Shown here piece after piece: positions 21,659 to 37,822 of a stretch of DNA of 64,000 bases (positions are counted from its first letter, which is position 1; every line of letters starts with the position of its first letter). Both the position numbers and the translations under genes were made by a program. Below the pieces are notes generated by a model. That model searched no databases. It saw only the letters and a program-made list of their open reading frames with translations, and was not told the DNA's origin. The stretch spans positions 514 through 64,513 of the forward strand of contig JAJEJB010000003.1 in NCBI GenBank assembly GCA_022828135.1. The letters are read 5' to 3'. Source of the stretch: Acidimicrobiia bacterium (lineage in GTDB: Bacteria > Actinomycetota > Acidimicrobiia > Acidimicrobiales > Aldehydirespiratoraceae).

Positions 21659-22236
21659 GTCTCCCGCACGGTTGTCTCCGCGGAGGTGGATCCATCGGAA
21701 CGGGATGTCCGGCGAGTCAGGATCACGGCGCCCACCACGGCCACGGTCAGCAGCGCCGCGGTGATCTCCACCGCAAAGGCGAACTCACTGAACAGCACCC
21801 GACCCATGCGCTCGATGTCGGTGGCGTCGCCATCGAGAGCCCGGTCGCCGCCAGCGCGACGCAGCCCGGTGAGCACGTCAGCGCCAGTGATGACAACCGT
21901 TCCCAACACCGCGACCAGGGCCGCACCGACAACGGCAGCCAGCGGTCGCTGCCCGAAGATGGGCTCGATTCGCAATTCCTCGGCCTTGTCGACGCCCAGC
22001 AGCATGATGACGAACAGGAAGAGGATCACGATGGCACCGGCGTACACGACCACCTGGACCGCGGCCAGAAAGTGAGCGTCGTTCAGCACGAACAGCACGG
22101 CCACCCCGACCAGCGTCTGGACCAGGAACAGGGCGGCGTGCACCGGGTTGCGGCTGGCCACCACACCGACAGCGCCAACCAGAATGATCACCGCCGAGAC
22201 GACGAACACGGCCTCAGCCACCGCTCGGCTCCTCAT
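21655..22236 (-). CDS. nuoJ: NADH-quinone oxidoreductase subunit J (copy 2)
   Basis: 193-aa product with SRNPVHAALFLVQTLVGVAVLFVLNDAHFLAAVQVVVYAGAIVILFLFVIMLLG. Confidence 0.9.
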   Translation of the reverse strand: MRSRAVAEAVFVVSAVIILVGAVGVVASRNPVHAALFLVQTLVGVAVLFVLNDAHFLAAVQVVVYAGAIVILFLFVIMLLGVDKAEELRIEPIFGQRPLAAVVGAALVAVLGTVVITGADVLTGLRRAGGDRALDGDATDIERMGRVLFSEFAFAVEITAALLTVAVVGAVILTRRTSRSDGSTSAETTVRET

Positions 22237-22837
22237 CGGCCGGCTCAGCGTCGCGCACGCCGTAGCCGAGCTCGCCGGACCAGGCCACCTCGCCCACGTA
22301 GCGGTGATCGCCGGAGGGCGAGGTGGCCCGCATCCAGCCTGAGGTCAGCGCGTCGTCGCCCTCGCGCCAGTCCTCCCACGGCATCCGGCGGGGCTGGCCG
22401 TCGTCGTCCACCAGCAGCTCGTCCTTGGTGTAGATGGCGTCGTCGCGGCTGGTGAACGAGAACTCGAACAGCTTCGACTCGGTGATGGCCTGGGTGGGGC
22501 AGGCCTCCACGCACAGATCGCAATGGATGCAGCGCAGGTAGTTGATCTCGTACACGTAGCCGTAGCGCTCGCCCGGCGCGACCGGATCGTCGGGATCGTT
22601 GTCGGCGCCGCGCACGTAGATGCAGTCGGCCGGGCACACGCCCGCGCACAGTTCACAGCCGATGCACTTCTCCATGCCGTCGTCGTAGCGGTTGAGCACG
22701 TGGCGACCGTGCAGCCGTTCCGGCTTGGGCCGCTTGACGTCCTTGGGCGAGTCGTCGAAGCCGCCCCGGTAGTCGGTGGTGACCCGGGGCAGGAACAGTT
22801 GGCGCAGGGTGACGGCGAAACCGTGCAGGTAACCCAT
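22214..22837 (-). CDS. nuoI: NADH-quinone oxidoreductase subunit I (copy 2), 2x[4Fe-4S]
   Basis: The start was trimmed to the ATG at 22835-22837 (MGYLHGFAVTLRQLF), immediately after the nuoH stop (22839-22841). It contains CIGCELCAGVCP and CIHCDLCVEACP. The C-terminal tail is longer than usual. Confidence 0.9.
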   Translation of the reverse strand: MGYLHGFAVTLRQLFLPRVTTDYRGGFDDSPKDVKRPKPERLHGRHVLNRYDDGMEKCIGCELCAGVCPADCIYVRGADNDPDDPVAPGERYGYVYEINYLRCIHCDLCVEACPTQAITESKLFEFSFTSRDDAIYTKDELLVDDDGQPRRMPWEDWREGDDALTSGWMRATSPSGDHRYVGEVAWSGELGYGVRDAEPADEEPSGG

Positions 22838-22838
22838 A

Positions 22839-24110
22839 TCAGGCCCTGTCCTCGACCGGGTCGGACTGCTCATCGGCGCGGGCGGCCTCGCTGTCACGGA
22901 TGCCGCGCCCGCTTCGCACCGCCCGGACCAGCAGAAGGGCCGCTCCGGCGAACACCAGCAGCGACACGACGGTGACCGCGGCCTCGCTCCAGCCCTGCTC
23001 GCGGCCCACGTCCAGGGCGGTCAGGAACAGGAACCAGCCCAGCGCCACCGGTATGAGAGCCTTCCATCCGAGGTCCATGAGCTGGTCGTAGCGGAACCGG
23101 GGCAGCGTGGCCCGCATCCATACGAAGCAGAACAGCAGCACGAACAGTTTCAGGAAGAACCAGACCACGCCCCACGCCCAGGCGATGCCGACGCCGCCCA
23201 CCTCGCTCACCAGCACCGGACCGGCCGGCCCGCCGAAGAACAGGGTGACGATGATGGCCGACATCGTGATCGTGTTCATGAACTCGGCCAGGAAGAACAG
23301 CGCGAAGCGGATCGACGAGTACTCGGTATGGAACCCGCCCACGAGCTCCTGCTCGGCCTCGACCAGGTCGAAGGGCGGGCGGTTGAGCTCGGCCGTGCCT
23401 GCGATCATGAACACGATGAAGGGCACCAGTCCGGTGACGATCACGTTCCAGCGGGGGATGATGCCGAAGTACCCCTCGGCCGCCTGCGCAACCACCATGT
23501 CATGGGTGGACAGGCCTCCGGTCACCAGCACGATGGATGCCACCGCCAGACCCAGCGCGGCTTCGTAGCTCACCATCTGCGCCGACGCCCGCACCGATCC
23601 CAGCAGGGGGTACTTGGACCCCGACGACCACCCGGCCAGCATCACCCCGTAGACGGCCACCGAGCTCATGGCCAGGAAGAGCAGGATCCCGATCGGCGGG
23701 TCGGCCACCTGGAGGTAGGTGGTGCGACCCCACCATTCGACCTGCCCAGCGTTGTTGAAGTCTCCGCCCAGCGGAACGATGGCGAAGGCCAGGAAGGCCG
23801 GGATGAGCGACAGGTACGGCGCCAGCTTGAACACGAACCGGTCCGACCGGTCCGGCACCAAGTCCTCCTTGAAGAAGAGCTTCGTGCCGTCGGCGAGGGT
23901 CTGCAGGATGCCGAAGGGTCCGGCGATCGTGGGCCCGAACCGCTGGTGCATCCCTCCCAGCAGCTTGCGCTCGAACCAGATCATCAGCATCACGGCCACC
24001 AGCAGGAACGCGAAGGCCACCACCACCTTGGCCAGCGTCAACACGACCTCGACCAGGCCGATGTCGCCGGCCAGCATGGGATCGGCGGCCAGCACGAGGG
24101 TGCCGCTCAT
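22839..24110 (-). CDS. nuoH: NADH-quinone oxidoreductase subunit H (copy 2), with extra C-terminal TM plus hydrophilic tail
   Basis: 423-aa product with WFERKLLGGMHQRFGPTIAGPFGILQTLADGTKLFFKEDLVP and EYSSIRFALFFLAEFMN. The tail reads ...SGRGIRDSEAARADEQSDPVEDRA. Confidence 0.93.
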   Translation of the reverse strand: MSGTLVLAADPMLAGDIGLVEVVLTLAKVVVAFAFLLVAVMLMIWFERKLLGGMHQRFGPTIAGPFGILQTLADGTKLFFKEDLVPDRSDRFVFKLAPYLSLIPAFLAFAIVPLGGDFNNAGQVEWWGRTTYLQVADPPIGILLFLAMSSVAVYGVMLAGWSSGSKYPLLGSVRASAQMVSYEAALGLAVASIVLVTGGLSTHDMVVAQAAEGYFGIIPRWNVIVTGLVPFIVFMIAGTAELNRPPFDLVEAEQELVGGFHTEYSSIRFALFFLAEFMNTITMSAIIVTLFFGGPAGPVLVSEVGGVGIAWAWGVVWFFLKLFVLLFCFVWMRATLPRFRYDQLMDLGWKALIPVALGWFLFLTALDVGREQGWSEAAVTVVSLLVFAGAALLLVRAVRSGRGIRDSEAARADEQSDPVEDRA

Positions 24111-30855: not shown

Positions 30856-31447
30856 GCCCGCGGCGGATGGTCGCAGTTGCCGTCTGGCCGTCGATCTGTT
30901 GAACCGCGATGCCGGCACCGCCGGACTCGCTGGCGGCTCGGCGGGCCAGCAGCTCCCCGGACAGGATCTCCTGGTGGAGCGTGAAGATGGCGTGCATCAG
31001 CGTCTCGGGACCGGGCGGGCATCCCGGCGCGTACACGTCCACCGGCACCACCTGGTCTACGCCCTGGACGATGGCGTAGTTGTTGAACATGCCTCCGCTG
31101 GAGGCGCACACGCCCATGGAGATGACCCACTTGGGCTCCATCATCTGGTCGTAGATCTGGCGCAGCACCGGGGCCATCTTCTGGGAGACCCGGCCGGCGA
31201 CGATCATCAGGTCGGCCTGGCGGGGCGAGGCCCGGAAGACCTCCATGCCGTAGCGGGCCAGGTCGTAATGGGCCGCTCCCGTGGCCATCATCTCGATGGC
31301 GCAGCAGGCCAGGCCGAAGGTCGCAGGCCAGCAGCTGCGGGCCCTCGACCAGTTGACCAGGCTCTCAAGCTTGGCCGTCATGAAGTTGTGCTGGATGGCC
31401 TTGAGGCCGTGCTCCCGCAAGTCGGCGACCTGGTCAGAGACCCCCAT
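30848..31447 (-). CDS. nuoB: NADH-quinone oxidoreductase subunit B (copy 2), with C-terminal extension
   Basis: 199-aa product with [22 protein letters not shown] and GCPPGPE. An extra roughly 35-aa tail reads ...[32 protein letters not shown]. Confidence 0.93.
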
Positions 31448-31947
31448 CAGACCACCTCCGACGGGCTGGGAACGCGGCCCTCGAGTCCCACGCGTCGAAC
31501 CGTCGTGCGAGCAGTGCGGGCCGCGGACACGATCTCCTCATCGGGCCCCGTCTCCTCGGAGGGGCTGGCCGAGCGTCCGGGCTTCGACGCCGGCCCCCAT
31601 TCGAGTGCGCCGGCGGAGATCAGATATACGAACGACTCGAACACCGCGAAGCTGAACACCAGCAGGACGACGAGTCCGAACAGTCCCAGGCCGCCCCGGG
31701 CCACCGCGTAGGGGTAGAACAACACGATCTCCACGTCGAAGACGATGAAGATCATGGCCACCAGGAAGAACCGGACGGGAAACCGCTCGGGAGTGTCGCG
31801 CGACGGCACGATCCCGCACTCGTAGGGATCCAGCTTGGGAACGGTCGCCCTCCGCGGGGCCAGCAGACCCGAGGCAACGAAGCTCCCCGCCGCGAACAGC
31901 GCCGCCAGCACGAACAGCGCGAACAGGGGGAGGTACTGCCCTAGCAC
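31447..31947 (-). CDS. nuoA: NADH-quinone oxidoreductase subunit A (copy 2), with about 50-aa hydrophilic C-terminal tail
   Basis: GTG start at 31945-31947. It contains YECGIVP...[27 protein letters not shown]. The tail reads ...[49 protein letters not shown]. Confidence 0.9.
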
Positions 31948-31987: not shown

Positions 31988-33019
31988 TCAGGCGTCCACT
32001 CGTGCTCCCGCCTCGCGCTGGCGCCAGGCCAACTTGTCGCGCTCGTGCAGGAACAGGCACAGCGCGCCGAAGATGCACAGGGAGCCGAGCGCCACCAGGG
32101 CCGGCTTGAGGCGGAGGTTGCCGAGGTCGCGGATCATGATCACCGAGATCACCGGCTTGGACTCATCGACGATGGGTCTGGGCGGAGGCTCGCCGGGAAC
32201 CAGGAGCTGATCGATCACCTCCTGGACCTGCACCACCGCGTATCGGGTTGGATGGGTGATGGTCACCGCGGTGCGGATCTGGGTCCAGATCCGGTCCCAC
32301 CGGTTCGGGTCGTCGGGCAGTCCCCGCTTGCCGCCGATGGTGTAGGCGTCGAGCAGCTTGAAGTCGTCCTGGGAGACGAACGTGAGGTCGGGGCTCTCCA
32401 GCAGCAACGCCACCGCGGAGGCCTGGGCATCGCCCGCCTCGGCGGTGGACAGGAGCTTCCAGCCGCCGAGTTCGATCCGGCCGGCCGCCTCAGCGTCCGC
32501 GATCAGGCCGGGCGACACCGCGGCCAGCTCCGACAGCGTGGTGGCACGATTGCGGGCCAACTCGTCGGCGACGAACTCGTCGATCTCGGAGGCGCTGAGC
32601 CCTTCGGTCTGGTCCGGCGTGAGCGTGTCCCTGCTGACCACGCCGAACTCGGCCTGCGCGACAGGGTCGTCGGAGTCCACGGCGAGTTCGAAGGCGGTCG
32701 GAAGCTCGGGAAGGTCGGGCAGCACTCTTGCCTCTTCCAGAGCCGCCGCGTCGAGGTCGCCCACGTTGATCTCCTGCAAGTGCCAGGTGGGAGCGTCGCC
32801 GGCCCACCCGATGCCGTAGATCCACCAGACGACGGCCATGATCACCATCCAGCCGAAGAACCCGGCGGTCGCGATGAGGGTGCCCAGCCGGGTTCCGGTG
32901 TTCAGGGCGAGCAGCAACCAGACCGAGCCCATGAGCACGATCACGCCCGCGAATACCGCCATGAAGCCGCGGATCTCGGGATCCCAGGCGAGCCCGGCGA
33001 TCACATCAAGCGATTCCAT
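31988..33019 (-). CDS. Hypothetical membrane protein (3 N-terminal TM, large acidic extracytoplasmic domain, C-terminal TM)
   Basis: 343-aa ORF lying between the cytochrome c gene and nuoA on the same strand. It has clear TM segments (FMAVFAGVIVLMGSVWLLLAL, LIATAGFFGWMVIMAVVWWIYGI, ALVALGSLCIFGALCLFL). No family was recognised. Confidence 0.6.
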   Translation of the reverse strand: MESLDVIAGLAWDPEIRGFMAVFAGVIVLMGSVWLLLALNTGTRLGTLIATAGFFGWMVIMAVVWWIYGIGWAGDAPTWHLQEINVGDLDAAALEEARVLPDLPELPTAFELAVDSDDPVAQAEFGVVSRDTLTPDQTEGLSASEIDEFVADELARNRATTLSELAAVSPGLIADAEAAGRIELGGWKLLSTAEAGDAQASAVALLLESPDLTFVSQDDFKLLDAYTIGGKRGLPDDPNRWDRIWTQIRTAVTITHPTRYAVVQVQEVIDQLLVPGEPPPRPIVDESKPVISVIMIRDLGNLRLKPALVALGSLCIFGALCLFLHERDKLAWRQREAGARVDA

Positions 33020-33091
33020 GCCACCAGTTCCTCTCGAACGCGACCATCACATCAAGTGCTGCCACGTCACAGGTTCCTCTCGAACGCGACC
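33000..33091. repeat. 46-bp tandem duplication spanning the cytochrome c stop and the downstream gene start
   Basis: The units at 33000-33045 and 33046-33091 share identical ends (atcacatcaag ... gttcctctcgaacgcgacc). Their diverged 16-nt centres carry, respectively, the ATG of the 31988-33019 gene and the TGA of the cytochrome c gene. Confidence 0.85.
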
Positions 33092-34326
33092 ACGGCGTCG
33101 ATCTGGTCCTGGGTGAGCGTGGCCGGGTAGACCACATCCAGGCCGTCGTCGGTGCGCGGACCGAAGCCCGGCATCTGGCCGTTGCCGCCCGAGCCGCCCC
33201 GGCCGTAGGTCTGGCCGATGCTCTGACCGGCCGAGATGAAGTCGGAGTGCAGGGCCGCGGTCTCGAACTGGTCCAGGGTGCTGCCGCCGGTCAGGTTGGG
33301 GCCGAAGAAGCCGCCGCCGTTGTTGTACGCCGCAAGGATCGGGCCGGCGTGGCCGTCGATGCTGTCGTCACCGTCGGTGGTTGCGTCGAAGGACCAGCCG
33401 TAGGTGTGGCAGCGGGCGCAGCTGTAGGTGCCTCCCGCGGCCCGGTTGTTGAAGATGATCTCGCCGTAGCTCCGGTACAGCTCGCTGCCGGGCGCCTGGC
33501 CCGACGCCAGCAGCTCAAGGCCGGCGTGGCGGATGGCCTCAGCGTTGCCCTCCAGAGACGGGTCGGCGGCCAGAGCCATGGCCCGGGCCTCCTCCACCGC
33601 GGCATCCACCGCTCCGAGCCACTCGTCCACCGCACCGTCGTCGGCGGCCACGCCCAGATGCTCGGCTATGCCCTCACGGATTCCGCCGTCCACGATCTCG
33701 CGCAGGTCCGACTCGGGGACCTGTATGCGCCGCAGGTAGTAGATCAGGTAGTCGACCTGCTGCGGGGTGAGAGGTCCGCCGCCGGGAGTGCCCCACGCCG
33801 GCATCACGTTGTTGCGGCCGTAGTTGAGTACATGGCGGACCTCGTCCTCGCTGAAGCGGGACAGCACGGTGTTCAGCGCCGGGGCGGTCCAGGCCACCGT
33901 GGCCACGAAGTTGCCCTCCGCGTCTGTGAGCGTGTACGGCGCGGAGCCGCCGGTGCCGTCGGCGCCGTGGCACCGCTGGCAGTCGGAGCCCTCGACGTAG
34001 AGCTCGCCGCCCCGGTCCGCGAAGATCCGGTCGGTGTCCTTGATGAGGCCCTCGTGTCGTCCGGGCTCGCCCAGCCAGTAGAGCGGCAGGCCCACCCCGA
34101 TGATGGCCAGCATGGCCAGCCCGGCCAGCAGGGACTTGTCGAGCTTGCTGCCCTCCAACTCCTCGTCCTCGAGGTAGGGCCTTCGGTTGGGAGCCAGCTC
34201 GATCTCGCTGCCCACCTCGTCGCGGGCCGAGCGCGAGTTGAGGATCAGGTAGACGACATACCCGACGAAGACGATGCCGAGTATGACGAACCCTATGGTT
34301 CGCTGGGTGGAGGCGGCGAGGAGCAT
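33067..34326 (-). CDS. Membrane-anchored dihaem c-type cytochrome
   Basis: 419-aa product with two N-terminal TM segments and two CxxCH motifs (CQRCH, CARCH). It lies directly downstream of the Rieske gene. Confidence 0.85.
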   Translation of the reverse strand: MLLAASTQRTIGFVILGIVFVGYVVYLILNSRSARDEVGSEIELAPNRRPYLEDEELEGSKLDKSLLAGLAMLAIIGVGLPLYWLGEPGRHEGLIKDTDRIFADRGGELYVEGSDCQRCHGADGTGGSAPYTLTDAEGNFVATVAWTAPALNTVLSRFSEDEVRHVLNYGRNNVMPAWGTPGGGPLTPQQVDYLIYYLRRIQVPESDLREIVDGGIREGIAEHLGVAADDGAVDEWLGAVDAAVEEARAMALAADPSLEGNAEAIRHAGLELLASGQAPGSELYRSYGEIIFNNRAAGGTYSCARCHTYGWSFDATTDGDDSIDGHAGPILAAYNNGGGFFGPNLTGGSTLDQFETAALHSDFISAGQSIGQTYGRGGSGGNGQMPGFGPRTDDGLDVVYPATLTQDQIDAVVAFERNL

Positions 34327-34361
34327 GCGCGCGGCGGCTTCCTACAGGTCGGTGCGAGCCA

Positions 34362-35231
34362 CTAGTGACTCGCCTGGCCGAGGCAACTCGGCCCCTCGGC
34401 TTCCTGGCCGGTGGTGTTGGTGCCGATCGGCGGGCCCTGGATGATCGTGCCGGTGTCGACGGTGAGCGATCCGTCGGCGCTGACTTCCACGGCGAAGCGG
34501 TCCATGCCCCTGGGTGCCGGCCCGGCCCGCTTCTCGCCCACCTGGTTGTACTTCGAGCCGTGGCACGGGCACTCGAACCACTGCGAGGTCACGCACTCAG
34601 GCACCCGGCAGCCCAGATGGGGGCACTTCTGGTACAGCGCCACGATGCCGCCGTCGAGCCCCAACTGGTGGCCCGCGGTCATCCCGGCCAGTTCGGGCCC
34701 CGAGTAGGCCGTGGCGGCCTTCTCCACCGCGCCGTTGGGGTACTCGGTGAGCCACATGCGGCCCTCCGGCTTGTACAGGAACCCGGAGTTGTCGCGGATC
34801 TCGGCCAGCAGATCGCTCACCAGGCCCACCTTGATCTTGGAGCCGAAGCCGCTGCTGCCCTGAGGCCACAGGAAGGCGATGCACGCCACGCCGAACCCCG
34901 AGAGGCTCAGGCTCATCAGCATCACGATCGTCCGGTTGAAGAACTGGCGGCGGCTCACTCCGATCGTCTCGGGATCGGGCGGGACATAGGGAACGGGCGG
35001 CCCGGAGCCTTCCGTCGGCGCCAGCGCGCTGGAGCGAGCCGCAGCCGCGGCCTTCTCCACCTCCCGACCTGTAGGCGGCGCCTCGGCCCGCAGCACCACC
35101 GATGACCGGTCCCGGCTGCGGGTCTCGCGCGACAGCATGCCGATGGCGGCGTCCGACTGGCGCCGGCGAACCGCGGCGAGCACAGCCACGATGGCCAGCA
35201 CGGCCAGCACAGCCACAGCCACATAGATCAT
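34362..35231 (-). CDS. qcrA: Rieske [2Fe-2S] iron-sulfur subunit of a quinol:cytochrome c oxidoreductase
   Basis: It carries the Rieske boxes CPHLGC and CPCHGS. A Tat-like SRRQFFN precedes a TM segment, and there is an extra N-terminal TM. Confidence 0.9.
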   Translation of the reverse strand: MIYVAVAVLAVLAIVAVLAAVRRRQSDAAIGMLSRETRSRDRSSVVLRAEAPPTGREVEKAAAAARSSALAPTEGSGPPVPYVPPDPETIGVSRRQFFNRTIVMLMSLSLSGFGVACIAFLWPQGSSGFGSKIKVGLVSDLLAEIRDNSGFLYKPEGRMWLTEYPNGAVEKAATAYSGPELAGMTAGHQLGLDGGIVALYQKCPHLGCRVPECVTSQWFECPCHGSKYNQVGEKRAGPAPRGMDRFAVEVSADGSLTVDTGTIIQGPPIGTNTTGQEAEGPSCLGQASH

Positions 35232-35247
35232 CGGTTGCCTCCCACCG

Positions 35248-36045
35248 TCATAGCTCGAAGAACAGTCCCGCTTGCCAGGGGAATACGAAGTTGAACCCCG
35301 GACCCCTGAAGAAGGAGCCGATGATCACCAGCACCGCCCAGAACATGAGGTGGATGGTCATGAGGCTGATGGCGAACTTGCGGTCCTCAGGCTTCTTGGA
35401 CGGGTTCCTGTCGATGTAGGGCGCCAGCATCAGCGCCAGCAGCCCGACACCGGGAATGGTGACGCCCGCCACCATCGGATGGAACATCGTCAGCAGCTCC
35501 TGCAGGCCGAGGAAGTACCAGGGTGCCTTGGAAGGGTTGGGTGTCTGGTTGTAGTTGGCCAGCTCCAGCAGCGGGGCGTTCACGAAGATCGAGAAGATCA
35601 GCGTGAACGCGGTGATGAACAGCGAAGCCACGAACTCCACCACCAGCAGGTGCGGCCACACGTGCACCTTGTCCTGTGGCTTGGACTTCACGTCCTGGAT
35701 CGAGCCCGACTTGACCACCGTCAGCAGGCGCTGGGTGTGCCCGCCGGGGCCGGTGGCACCCGTCGCCGGCGCGGTCGGTGGGGCGGCTACGGCCACTCCC
35801 CCGCCGCCGGCTGCCGCGGCCGGAGCCTGGGCCTCCGGGGCGCCGCCGGACGCCTCAGCCCTCGCCGCCTTGGACCGCTCCAGCAGGTGCGGCGGAATCT
35901 TGCTTGCCGCCTGTTGCTCGGCCTCGGCAGCGCCGTCGCCTGAGCCTGCGGCTGCGGGCCCGCCTGCCGCGGCGGCCTTGGCCGCCTCGGCCTTGGCCCG
36001 GGCCTCCTCGGCCCGCTTGCGCAGATGCTCGGGGATCTCCACCAT
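35248..36045 (-). CDS. Cytochrome b C-terminal half / b6f subunit IV-like protein with Ala/Gly-rich N-terminal extension
   Basis: The C-terminal roughly 150 aa align by eye to PetD/QcrB-C (PSKAPWYFLGLQELL is equivalent to the PEWYF motif; 3 TM). The N-terminal roughly 110 aa are low complexity with a duplicated IP-x-HL-x-x-R-x-x-x-AR-A motif. Confidence 0.85.
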   Translation of the reverse strand: MVEIPEHLRKRAEEARAKAEAAKAAAAGGPAAAGSGDGAAEAEQQAASKIPPHLLERSKAARAEASGGAPEAQAPAAAAGGGGVAVAAPPTAPATGATGPGGHTQRLLTVVKSGSIQDVKSKPQDKVHVWPHLLVVEFVASLFITAFTLIFSIFVNAPLLELANYNQTPNPSKAPWYFLGLQELLTMFHPMVAGVTIPGVGLLALMLAPYIDRNPSKKPEDRKFAISLMTIHLMFWAVLVIIGSFFRGPGFNFVFPWQAGLFFEL

Positions 36046-36063
36046 CGCCGCCTACCTCTACTC

Positions 36064-36858
36064 CTACAGCGGACCCGAGATGCCGCCGTCCTTGCGGACG
36101 CGCCAGAAGTGGACGGCCAGGAAGATCACGAGCACGAACGGCAGCATCAGCACGTGCAGCACGTACCAGCGCAACAGCGTGTCCGTTCCGATCTCCACTC
36201 CGCCGAGCAGCACGAACCGCACCTGGTCGCCGAACACGGGCGTGTAGCCCATCATGTTGGTGCCCACGGTCACCGCCCACAGCGCCAGCTGGTCCCACGG
36301 CAGCAAGTACCCGGTGAACGACAGCAGCAGCGTCAATTTCAGCAGGATCACGCCGATGACCCAGTTGAACTCCCGGGGCGGCTTGTAGGCCCCGTGGTAG
36401 AAGACCCGGGCCATGTGCAGGAACACGGTGATCACCATGAGGTGGGCGCCCCACCGGTGCATGTTGCGGACCAGCAGGCCGAAGGTCACCGAGGTCTGCA
36501 GGATGTAGATGTCGTCCCAGGCCTGGGCCGCGGTGGGACGGTAGAAGAACATCAGGAAGATGCCGGTGACGGTCTCGAGGATGAACAGGAAGAAGCTCAG
36601 ACCGCCCAGGCACAGGGTGTAGCTCACCTTCACGGCGTGACGCTTCACCTTCACGGGGTGAAGGTGGTACAGCACGCTGTTCATGACCACGTACGACCGG
36701 TTCCGGGGGCTGTCTGTGTAGCCCTTGCGGAAGATCGACCCGGGCCGGAAGATCGAGGTCCAGGCCTGCGATCCCTGGACCTGGTCGCCCAGCTTCGTCA
36801 TCTGGGCGACGAGGCGGTCCGGCAGAGGCGTCTTGCGCTCGTCTGTGTCGATGGCCAT
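36064..36858 (-). CDS. qcrB: Cytochrome b6-type subunit (N-terminal four-helix half of cytochrome b)
   Basis: The start was trimmed to the ATG at 36856-36858 (MAIDTDERK...). The helix-B His pair NMH-x13-H and the helix-D pair H-x14-H show b6-type spacing. The Cys in TLCLGG corresponds to the b6 FYC(I/L)GG heme-ci ligand. The C-terminus [10 protein letters not shown] closely mirrors plastid/cyanobacterial b6 (RKQGISGPL). Confidence 0.9.
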
Positions 36859-36896
36859 GGGTCTCCTGCGGATCGAGTCTGGGGGTCGAGATTTTC

Positions 36897-37313
36897 CTAA
36901 GCGAGTCGCATCCCGTAGCCGTAGCCATGGGAGTTGGTTCTCTGGTGAGGGTCGCCCCCGGGGGGAGGATCGCCCATCTTGCCGAGAATGATGACGCCGG
37001 TCGGGCAGCGATCCACGCAAAGCGCGCAGCGCGTGCATACGTCATCGTCGATTGTGAAGATCACCTTGTCGGCGGGGTCTATGCCCGGCAGCTCGGTGCC
37101 GACGGCCTCGTCGACGGCGTCGGTCGTGACCATGAAGATGCACTTCCACGGGCAGATGTCCACGCAGCCCTCGCACATGATGCACTCTGACTGGTCGATG
37201 TGGATGAACTGCTTGGGCTTGACAGCCTGAGCGAGCCAGGCCGCGTCCACCTCCTGGAGCACGTAGTCGTCCCGGAACTCCGGCATGGGCGGGTTGGCGT
37301 CGGTAGTGGTCAC
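36897..37313 (-). CDS. 2x[4Fe-4S] ferredoxin-domain protein
   Basis: The GTG at 37311-37313 overlaps the upstream gene's TGA (GTGA). The 138-aa product carries [12 protein letters not shown] and [12 protein letters not shown]. Confidence 0.85.
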
Positions 37314-37822
37314 GCCTCGGATCCCTCCCGAACCAGGGGGCGCCCGAAGCTGGAGAGCTCGACGGCCTCGGCGGCCTCGGCCTTCTTGCCCCGGTTCTGC
37401 CACACCATCCACAGCCACACCTGCGCGCCGACCGCGACGACGTAGATCCCGCTGGCGATGACATCGCGGATCACCACATAGGTGATCGTGAACGGGAAGC
37501 TGCCGCCCTGCGCCTGGGCCCGCAGGATCCCTCCCGGGCCGACGAAGAGCTTGTCGGTTCGCCAGTTGAGCTCGTTGTCCGCCCACGCGAGCCACTGGTG
37601 GGGCACGACCCCGTATATCCAGAACATCCCGAAGAAGACGATCATCGCCCCGAACATGGCCTCGCCCCACGTGACCGAGGTCCCCACGGGGCGGCGCTTC
37701 GTGTAGGCGAGGATGGCGCCGACGAGTGCGACCGTGACCACGATTGACAGAGCGAAGGCGACCACCGGTACTCCTCGGCGACGACTACTGACGGCTGGCA
37801 GTGTAGTCCGAGCAGGGCGCAC
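37310..37822 (-). CDS. Hypothetical membrane protein (3 TM), first gene of the bc-type cluster
   Basis: 170-aa ORF with a GTG start. TM segments include VVAFALSIVVTVALVGAILAY, AMFGAMIVFFGMFWIYGVV and IASGIYVVAVGAQVWLWMVW. It is translationally coupled to the ferredoxin gene. No family was recognised, and the exact start is uncertain. Confidence 0.6.
   Translation of the reverse strand: MRPARTTLPAVSSRRRGVPVVAFALSIVVTVALVGAILAYTKRRPVGTSVTWGEAMFGAMIVFFGMFWIYGVVPHQWLAWADNELNWRTDKLFVGPGGILRAQAQGGSFPFTITYVVIRDVIASGIYVVAVGAQVWLWMVWQNRGKKAEAAEAVELSSFGRPLVREGSEA

Follow-up and report, generated by a model that had tools for sequence, protein, structure and literature searches.

A dicluster ferredoxin encoded within the b6-type Rieske/cytochrome b operon of Acidimicrobiia and other Actinomycetota, a candidate cytoplasmic-side subunit of complex III

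Rieske/cytochrome b complexes in which cytochrome b is split into a four-helix b6 protein and a separate subunit IV (SU-IV) include the b6f complex (PetB/PetD/PetC/PetA), the b6c complexes of Firmicutes and heliobacteria, and the "APWY clade" of Kao & Hunte 2014 (PMC4122944), which combines a split cytochrome b with an APWY motif at the quinol-oxidizing (Qo) site and a CxGG motif. Dibrova et al. (2013; 2017, PMC5600118) treat the group corresponding to this clade, which includes ExtP/ExtQ of Geobacter, as subfamily G. According to PMC4122944 the split cytochrome b of Acidimicrobidae is already known as APWY clade, that of Ilumatobacter being listed in the APWY or CxGG clades, and no member of the APWY clade has been characterized. 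For the same cytochrome b subfamily, cytoplasmic iron-sulfur (FeS)/NAD(P) modules have likewise already been noted in anammox bacteria (PMC5600118, PMC12954380): Dibrova et al. (PMC5600118) found large NAD(P)/FeS oxidoreductases occurring together with cytochromes b of subfamily G, and AlphaFold3 models of the Kuenenia complexes contain a path from heme cN through [4Fe-4S] clusters to flavin adenine dinucleotide (FAD) (PMC12954380). Here we analyze a 64-kb stretch of contig JAJEJB010000003.1 from an uncultured Acidimicrobiales bacterium (the window), which carries a seven-gene cluster for a b6-type Rieske complex with a 2x[4Fe-4S] ferredoxin gene, here called Fdx, in its midst. We consider it probable that the cluster encodes the organism's sole menaquinol:cytochrome c reductase, a b6-like complex of the APWY clade in which Fdx would be an FeS-port subunit at the membrane's cytoplasmic face (n-side), and 2 further membrane proteins, M1 and M2, would be accessory.

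The 7 genes lie closely packed on the same strand between 31988 and 37822 (−), and read 5' to 3' on the minus strand in the order M1, Fdx, b6, SU-IV, Rieske, diheme cytochrome c, M2, followed by nuoA. Their features are as follows.

37310–37822, minus strand: M1, a 170-amino acid (aa) membrane protein with a core of 2 to 3 transmembrane (TM) helices, seen as an open reading frame (ORF); candidate accessory subunit.
36897–37313, minus strand: Fdx, a 138-aa 2x[4Fe-4S] ferredoxin matching Pfam Fer4 dicluster families.
36064–36858, minus strand: cytochrome b6-like subunit of 264 aa with four helices (Pfam Cytochrome_B, 1.8e-46).
35248–36045, minus strand: SU-IV-like protein of 265 aa (Pfam Cytochrom_B_C).
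34362–35231, minus strand: Rieske [2Fe-2S] protein of 289 aa (Pfam Rieske).
33067–34326, minus strand: membrane-anchored diheme cytochrome c of 419 aa (Pfam Cytochrom_C; heme motifs CQRCH and CARCH).
31988–33019, minus strand: M2, a 343-aa membrane protein, seen as an ORF; candidate accessory subunit.
31447–31947, minus strand: nuoA, given as context; it opens a complete complex I operon and lies 40 nucleotides (nt) downstream of M2.

The gaps between successive genes from M1 to M2 are −4, 38, 18, 16, 35, and 47 nt. The first of these is the 4-nt overlap GTGA, read directly in the sequence, in which the stop codon of M1 overlaps the GTG start of Fdx. A preliminary description of this DNA had given the same gene order and the same coupling, and all seven ORFs agree with it. 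The 40-nt gap between M2 and nuoA contained no terminator-like site, in sigma-70 and terminator scans that were uninformative overall, and a search for the Rex operator TTGTGAA-N4-TTCACAA with up to 3 mismatches gave no match within the window.

That description had also read the cytochrome b as split and b6-like, and each feature it named can be recovered from the 2 neighboring genes, one encoding a Cytochrome_B N-domain protein and the other a Cytochrom_B_C protein. The b6 translation has the histidine spacings H-x13-H and H-x14-H, the cysteine of its LCLGG motif aligns with Cys35 of the YCIGG/YCLGG motif in solved b6 chains, and its C-terminus aligns with their RKQ-GISGPL. The window complex thus has in common with b6f and with Firmicute and heliobacterial b6c complexes a four-helix b6 with a separate SU-IV, the histidine spacings, the heme ci cysteine and a C-terminal RKxGISGPL, and heme ci is predicted to be bound covalently to b6 through the LCLGG cysteine. 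Against solved structures the window b6 matched b6 chains at ~1e-47, proteobacterial cytochromes b at ~1e-32 and actinobacterial QcrB at ~1e-23. With NCBIfam models it passed the cut-off for ExtP (305.6 bits, cut-off 290) and scored 215 bits with the cytochrome b6 model, while the actinobacterial QcrB model gave 114 bits, below its cut-off of 500. The b6 protein also carries a conserved N-terminal extension of ~50 residues (WxSIFRPGS...).

A feature absent from the preliminary description is the Qo motif of SU-IV, which reads KAPWYFLGLQE and is therefore of the APWY rather than the PEWY type. APWY is present in 77 Acidimicrobiales loci; of 24 further actinobacterial loci, 23 have it and the remaining one ends at a contig edge. 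With its split cytochrome b, CxGG cysteine and APWY site, the window cytochrome b very probably belongs to the published but uncharacterized APWY clade (subfamily G), a placement that draws on the ExtP score above cut-off, the motif match and the Acidimicrobidae member listed in PMC4122944. It differs from the clade in the context of the cysteine, which is LCLGG where WCMGG is typical, and in that an aerobe has the window complex as its sole complex III and not as an additional one. For the actinobacterial members, the available text of PMC4122944 and PMC5600118 describes no stand-alone ferredoxin, M1 or M2.

SU-IV aligns in Pfam with the three-helix PetD-type C-terminal domain and begins with an Ala/Gly-rich extension of ~130 residues carrying 2 IPxHL(L/R)xR motifs (35716–36045 of the window). 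In a regular-expression scan of all ORFs of the genome, this motif was credible solely in SU-IV. In contrast to b6f and b6c complexes, the cluster encodes neither cytochrome f nor a fusion of SU-IV with cytochrome c, has APWY in place of PEWY/PDWY, and adds the b6 extension as well as M1, Fdx, and M2. By Pfam its c-type subunit is a diheme class-I cytochrome c, not cytochrome f (PetA). A departure from the canonical actinobacterial qcrCAB, also claimed earlier, is borne out both by the b6 type of the complex and by the rest of the genome, where no qcrCAB was found. The QcrCAB complexes of Mycobacterium and Corynebacterium share with the window complex the phylum, menaquinol as substrate and a membrane-bound diheme cytochrome c as electron exit. 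Their QcrB, however, is unsplit (~540 aa) and lacks the cysteine, whereas the window b6 is split and has it; the window cytochrome c has no detectable similarity to solved QcrC, and no cta genes lie alongside.

In the whole genome, which is 95% complete, a Pfam profile search returned a single Cytochrome_B match, and neither qcrCAB nor a second cytochrome b was found. Elsewhere the genome carries heme-copper oxidase genes, and it has menA of the classical menaquinone pathway (250 bits, cut-off 102); no MqnA of the futalosine pathway was found in it. Because of this single Cytochrome_B, the oxidase genes, and menA without MqnA, we take the complex to be the organism's sole complex III, operating in an aerobic chain with menaquinone. 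The Rieske protein has a twin-arginine motif (SRRQFF) and the cluster-binding motifs CPHLGC ... CPCHGSKY, including the Ser/Tyr pair associated with high potential, and CPCHGSxY is the prevailing form wherever the Rieske motif was detected across the clade. Its best solved relatives are Kuste4569 and Kustd1480 of Kuenenia (9rk4, 9rk3), whose potentials are +303 and +335 mV (PMC12954380). A high-potential Rieske center may thus be paired with menaquinone in this complex. The diheme cytochrome c, for which no solved relative was found by sequence in the PDB, actinobacterial QcrC included, is presumed to be the electron exit towards the heme-copper oxidase.

In the ferredoxin, Fdx, a loop of ~30 residues lies between two CxxCxxCxxxCP motifs. 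The DDYxLxxVDxxWL segment at its N-terminus and its GYGYGMRL tail are conserved, and all 8 cluster cysteines are invariant across the phylum. No signal peptide or twin-arginine motif is visible in its sequence. Fdx is most simply taken as a cytoplasmic protein and would sit at the cytoplasmic face, since, unlike the Rieske protein with its SRRQFF, it lacks an export signal, and since the b6 N-terminus is on the cytoplasmic side in b6f. In b6f complexes contact with ferredoxin or ferredoxin-NADP reductase is transient and debated, and here the ferredoxin is encoded in the operon itself. The claim that such a gene lies outside the b6f and bcc paradigms is supported.

Like NuoI, Fdx has the fold of a two-cluster ferredoxin in which an insertion separates the motifs, and in Acidimicrobiales it lies near the nuo operon, but an assignment as NuoI was rejected: it scores 43 bits with TIGR01971, whose cut-off is 113, and its gene is upstream of b6, not between nuoH and nuoJ. 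A separate NuoI-like ORF in the nuo region of the window (~22217–23020, minus strand; C7:22730–23533 in the genome) is taken to be the genuine NuoI and a different protein from the Fdx of the complex III operon. It is the best match in the genome, after Fdx itself, to the ferredoxin profile (34 bits), every other ferredoxin domain in the genome scoring 21 bits or less. In other classes Fdx shows no proximity to nuo genes. Public names for Fdx homologs include NADH-quinone oxidoreductase subunit I, formate hydrogenlyase subunit 6, PreA subunit, and DUF362 protein.

The nearest public relatives are Acidimicrobiales metagenome-assembled genomes, many of them sponge-derived. We compared 80 Acidimicrobiales loci, in which every "missing" gene is accounted for by a contig end. 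Fdx is directly upstream of b6 in all 80; M1 precedes Fdx in 78, the diheme cytochrome c is syntenic in 74, and nuoA and nuoB follow M2 in 69, the remaining loci ending at a contig edge in each case. Fdx and both membrane genes are thus strictly syntenic with the b6 and Rieske genes in relatives. The heme ci cysteine, whose conservation the preliminary description had proposed as a check, is present in 77 Acidimicrobiales loci and in 24/24 other actinobacterial loci. Median identity to the window across the 80 loci is 88% for b6, 82% for Fdx, 71% for SU-IV, and 61% for Rieske, and 50%, 42%, and 40% for M1, cytochrome c, and M2. The link to nuoA is specific to Acidimicrobiales, with no nuo genes near Fdx in the other families and classes sampled.

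Across the phylum, in a sample of 401 evenly chosen Actinomycetota genomes, Fdx was found in 157, and the window type of b6 in 159 at E ≤ 1e-100, or ~163 when 4 truncated matches are added (counted by hand). About 60 genomes contain a second b6-like type (E 1e-41 to 1e-59; families f25, f41, f29, f53, f44, f65, and others) and ~40 have QcrB-like matches only; Fdx occurred in none of these ~100 genomes with other cytochrome b types only. Within the order to which the window belongs, genomes G173 and G225 lack Fdx and have a QcrB-like match only. The order Fdx-b6-SU-IV-Rieske-cytochrome c(-M2) is kept in 20/20 Fdx-positive genomes from at least 15 other families, among them Egicoccus halophilus and Euzebyales, both of the class Nitriliruptoria, and an M1-related TM ORF stands ahead of Fdx in 18 of these 20 loci. 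The suggestion that the arrangement is unusual therefore stands in one respect and not in another: it is outside the b6f and bcc paradigms, but it is the genomic norm of Acidimicrobiia, Nitriliruptoria, and many other Actinomycetota and no oddity of a single organism. We found no published description of the cluster in the literature on Acidimicrobiia, complex III/b6f, and ferredoxin. To judge from its adjacency to b6, its translational coupling, its co-occurrence with this cytochrome b type and its core-like conservation, Fdx belongs to the complex III module.

What Fdx might do there is suggested by its relatives. An exhaustive search of 1.84 billion representative proteins with an Fdx family profile showed the family to be small, with 33 proteins at E ≤ 1e-30; its stand-alone distant members include P0279, P0329, and P0340. 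Once the family itself and polyferredoxins with several domains are set aside, the closest single-domain matches are the C-terminal domains of ~600-aa GltD-like FAD/NAD(P) oxidoreductases, which consist of Fer4_20, Pyr_redox_2 (FAD/NAD(P)) and a terminal dicluster ferredoxin. In the Rieske/cytochrome b complexes of anammox bacteria, the NAD(P) oxidoreductase subunits are reported to have the same architecture. The Fdx family profile gives 43 to 75 bits on these C-terminal domains, versus the 34 bits on the genome's NuoI. Three of the GltD-like proteins (P0421, P0484, P0405) are encoded directly upstream of genes for split cytochrome b, an SU-IV-like protein, Rieske and cytochrome c, and a fourth (P0389) directly downstream of b6 and an APWY SU-IV; in 3 loci (L117, L119, L120) the gene occupies the position equivalent to that of Fdx. 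An N-terminal W-x-S-(I/F)-F-R-x-G segment is also common to the cytochromes b of these clusters and the window b6. In view of the profile scores, the gene contexts, and the likeness of the Rieske protein to those of Kuenenia, Fdx is best seen as the membrane-proximal, two-cluster part of a GltD-type module, and the stand-alone form may be either a remnant or a precursor of that module.

Among the closest described counterparts are the complexes Kuste4569-4574 and Kustd1480-1485 of the anammox bacterium Kuenenia stuttgartiensis (Kartal 2013; PMC12954380). These share with the window complex a b6-type core, a cytoplasmic FeS module beside cytochrome b, the Rieske motif CPCHGSKY, and the use of menaquinone. 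They differ in that their module, a large GltD-like FAD/NAD(P) oxidoreductase, has four clusters, whereas the window cluster has a two-cluster ferredoxin, with Fer4 domains only, and no Pyr_redox gene. They also contain hexa-/octaheme cytochromes and a five-helix SU-IV, where the window has a diheme cytochrome c and an SU-IV that aligns with the three-helix PetD-type domain. Finally, anammox bacteria have several Rieske/cytochrome b complexes and the window genome has one.

M1 contains the motif VPHQWLAWAD, an RD pair ahead of its last helix and a basic cytoplasmic tail, and has no match in Pfam, NCBIfam, or the PDB; its start codon is uncertain because homologs have a core of 2 to 3 TM helices with variable N-termini. 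In M2, a TM hairpin at the N-terminus is followed by an alpha/beta domain of ~230 residues, which is predicted to face outward, and by a C-terminal TM helix. Its AlphaFold2 model is confident, with a predicted local distance difference test (pLDDT) score of 90 and three TM helices, yet no Pfam, NCBIfam, or PDB profile matched it and no PDB fold did (best E 0.13). Outside the class, conservation of M2 is confined to the N-terminal hairpin. Both may be regarded as clade-specific candidate accessory membrane subunits.

The features read in the sequence (a split b6-type cytochrome b with a heme ci cysteine, an APWY site, a Rieske protein with twin-arginine motif and Ser/Tyr pair, and a menaquinone gene) suggest the following mechanism. 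An ordinary Q cycle would be the main activity, as it must be in a sole complex III, with electrons passing to the membrane-anchored diheme cytochrome c and on to the heme-copper oxidase. Fdx would be a stoichiometric n-side subunit beside hemes bH and ci, a short FeS wire between the Qi/heme-ci region and a cytoplasmic partner, and the counterpart of the C-terminal ferredoxin domain of anammox-type GltD, pared down to the 2 clusters nearest the membrane. Electrons might enter by this wire, from ferredoxin-level donors through heme ci to menaquinone, or the low-potential electron of the Qo site might leave by it to a cytoplasmic acceptor, given the Ser/Tyr Rieske protein and menaquinol. An extra FeS route of this kind, in either direction, is plausible from the conservation of Fdx, its gene position, and its homology to the anammox-type module. 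A more far-reaching version, which we regard as doubtful, would make Fdx a hard-wired port on heme ci, so that the complex acts as a ferredoxin-level:menaquinone reductase or uses quinol-driven bifurcation to make ferredoxin-level reductant in an aerobe. If true, the former would be a bacterial counterpart of the long-sought b6f ferredoxin-quinone reductase. In the latter, a high-potential Rieske center together with menaquinol would push the second electron through the b hemes and heme ci to [4Fe-4S]. Lineages without Fdx would be natural controls.

Such lineages are among the observations that weigh against Fdx being an electron-carrying subunit. In 4 genomes of a Euzebyales family (L110-L113; G164, G203, G229, G177) M1 is followed by b6 within ~100 nt and no Fdx gene was found at the locus or elsewhere in the genome, with M1, b6 with its cysteine, SU-IV with APWY, Rieske, cytochrome c, and M2 all kept. 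Fdx is therefore accessory, dispensable both for the core and for the cysteine. No natural fusion of Fdx to b6 or M1 was found in public protein sets, and the AlphaFold2 single-chain model of Fdx, from a 41-sequence alignment, is poor (pLDDT 39). The kinship with GltD also has its limits: similarity to the C-terminal domain is moderate (34% over 89 residues), and one protein with a similar profile score (P0459) lies in an unrelated context without a cytochrome b neighbor. In 2 GltD clusters on metagenome contigs (L117/L118 and L119) the cytochrome b lacks the heme ci cysteine (TWGLGG), the Qo motif is AAWY and the Rieske protein lacks the Ser/Tyr pair, so the module is not tied to the cysteine or the pair.

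Some further observations concern these same loci. Multiheme cytochromes are neighbors in L117/L118 and L119, to which L117/L118 adds a Rex-like gene and a molybdopterin enzyme/NrfD module. Among the 4 loci without Fdx, 2 keep and 2 have lost the GGY(K/R) tail at the C-terminus of M1, which thus gives no clear signal of co-evolution between M1 and Fdx. Apparent M1-Fdx and Fdx-b6 fusions (P0260, P0267, P0270, P0273, P0290, P0333, and others) were rejected, as real and out-of-frame sequence alternates in them and they represent frameshifted assemblies. An Fdx frame that seemed to run into b6 in families f21/f55 was rejected as well, being interrupted by a stop codon. Frameshifted chimeras of this kind, probably from error-prone assemblies, could mislead surveys of domain architecture.

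Three other explanations of the locus have to be set against an n-side FeS port. Fdx could be an ordinary soluble ferredoxin, co-transcribed with the complex (for example, level-matched to respiration) and serving unrelated enzymes without being a subunit. Its small size and lack of a membrane segment, its loss in the 4 Euzebyales-family genomes that keep the complex, and the lack of a natural fusion would all fit. A free carrier, however, would not be expected to sit directly upstream of b6 in 100/100 Fdx-carrying loci across phylum-level divergence, with translational coupling, nor to be as conserved as the core subunits and to be missing from genomes with other cytochrome b types, and homologous domains are built into oxidoreductase subunits of Rieske/cytochrome b operons. 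We consider this explanation unlikely. A second alternative is a bound Fdx that carries no catalytic electron flux and acts as a redox or oxygen sensor or as a structural n-side cap. That Fdx is dispensable in some lineages and that a sole complex III must run a normal Q cycle are compatible with such a passive role, but the 8 cluster ligands are invariant throughout the phylum and in GltD-type subunits the homologous domain evidently belongs to an electron wire that leads to FAD, which makes a subunit without flux improbable.

It is just as improbable, in our view, that Fdx, M1, and/or M2 are biogenesis factors, for instance for n-side attachment of heme ci without the CCB system, or for FeS or heme delivery. 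Heme ci insertion outside cyanobacteria and plastids is described as an open problem in PMC5600118, and neither M1 nor M2 matches a known family or fold, both of which would fit such a function. Yet the lineages without Fdx keep the CxGG cysteine, so Fdx is not needed for it; the gene tables of the GltD-ferredoxin clusters contain no recognizable counterparts of M1 or M2, whether the cysteine is present or not; and the large domain of M2 is predicted to be extracellular, the wrong side for heme ci.

The cluster is thus a widespread, uncharacterized version of a known type of complex, and the built-in ferredoxin is its point of interest. Since Fdx is routinely mislabeled as NuoI, PreA, or formate hydrogenlyase subunit 6, reconstructed respiratory chains miss a component of the complex that serves abundant marine, freshwater, soil, and sponge-associated Acidimicrobiia as their only complex III. 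If Fdx is a bound n-side subunit, these bacteria, some of them cultivable (Egicoccus halophilus, Salinilacustrithrix flava, Aquihabitans), would provide an aerobic and genetically simple system for 2 questions. One is electron exchange between a ferredoxin-type center and heme ci in b6-type complexes, which is the debated route of photosynthetic cyclic flow. The other is the diversion of the low-potential quinol electron to cytoplasmic acceptors, which has been proposed, and is as yet unproven, for anammox bacteria.

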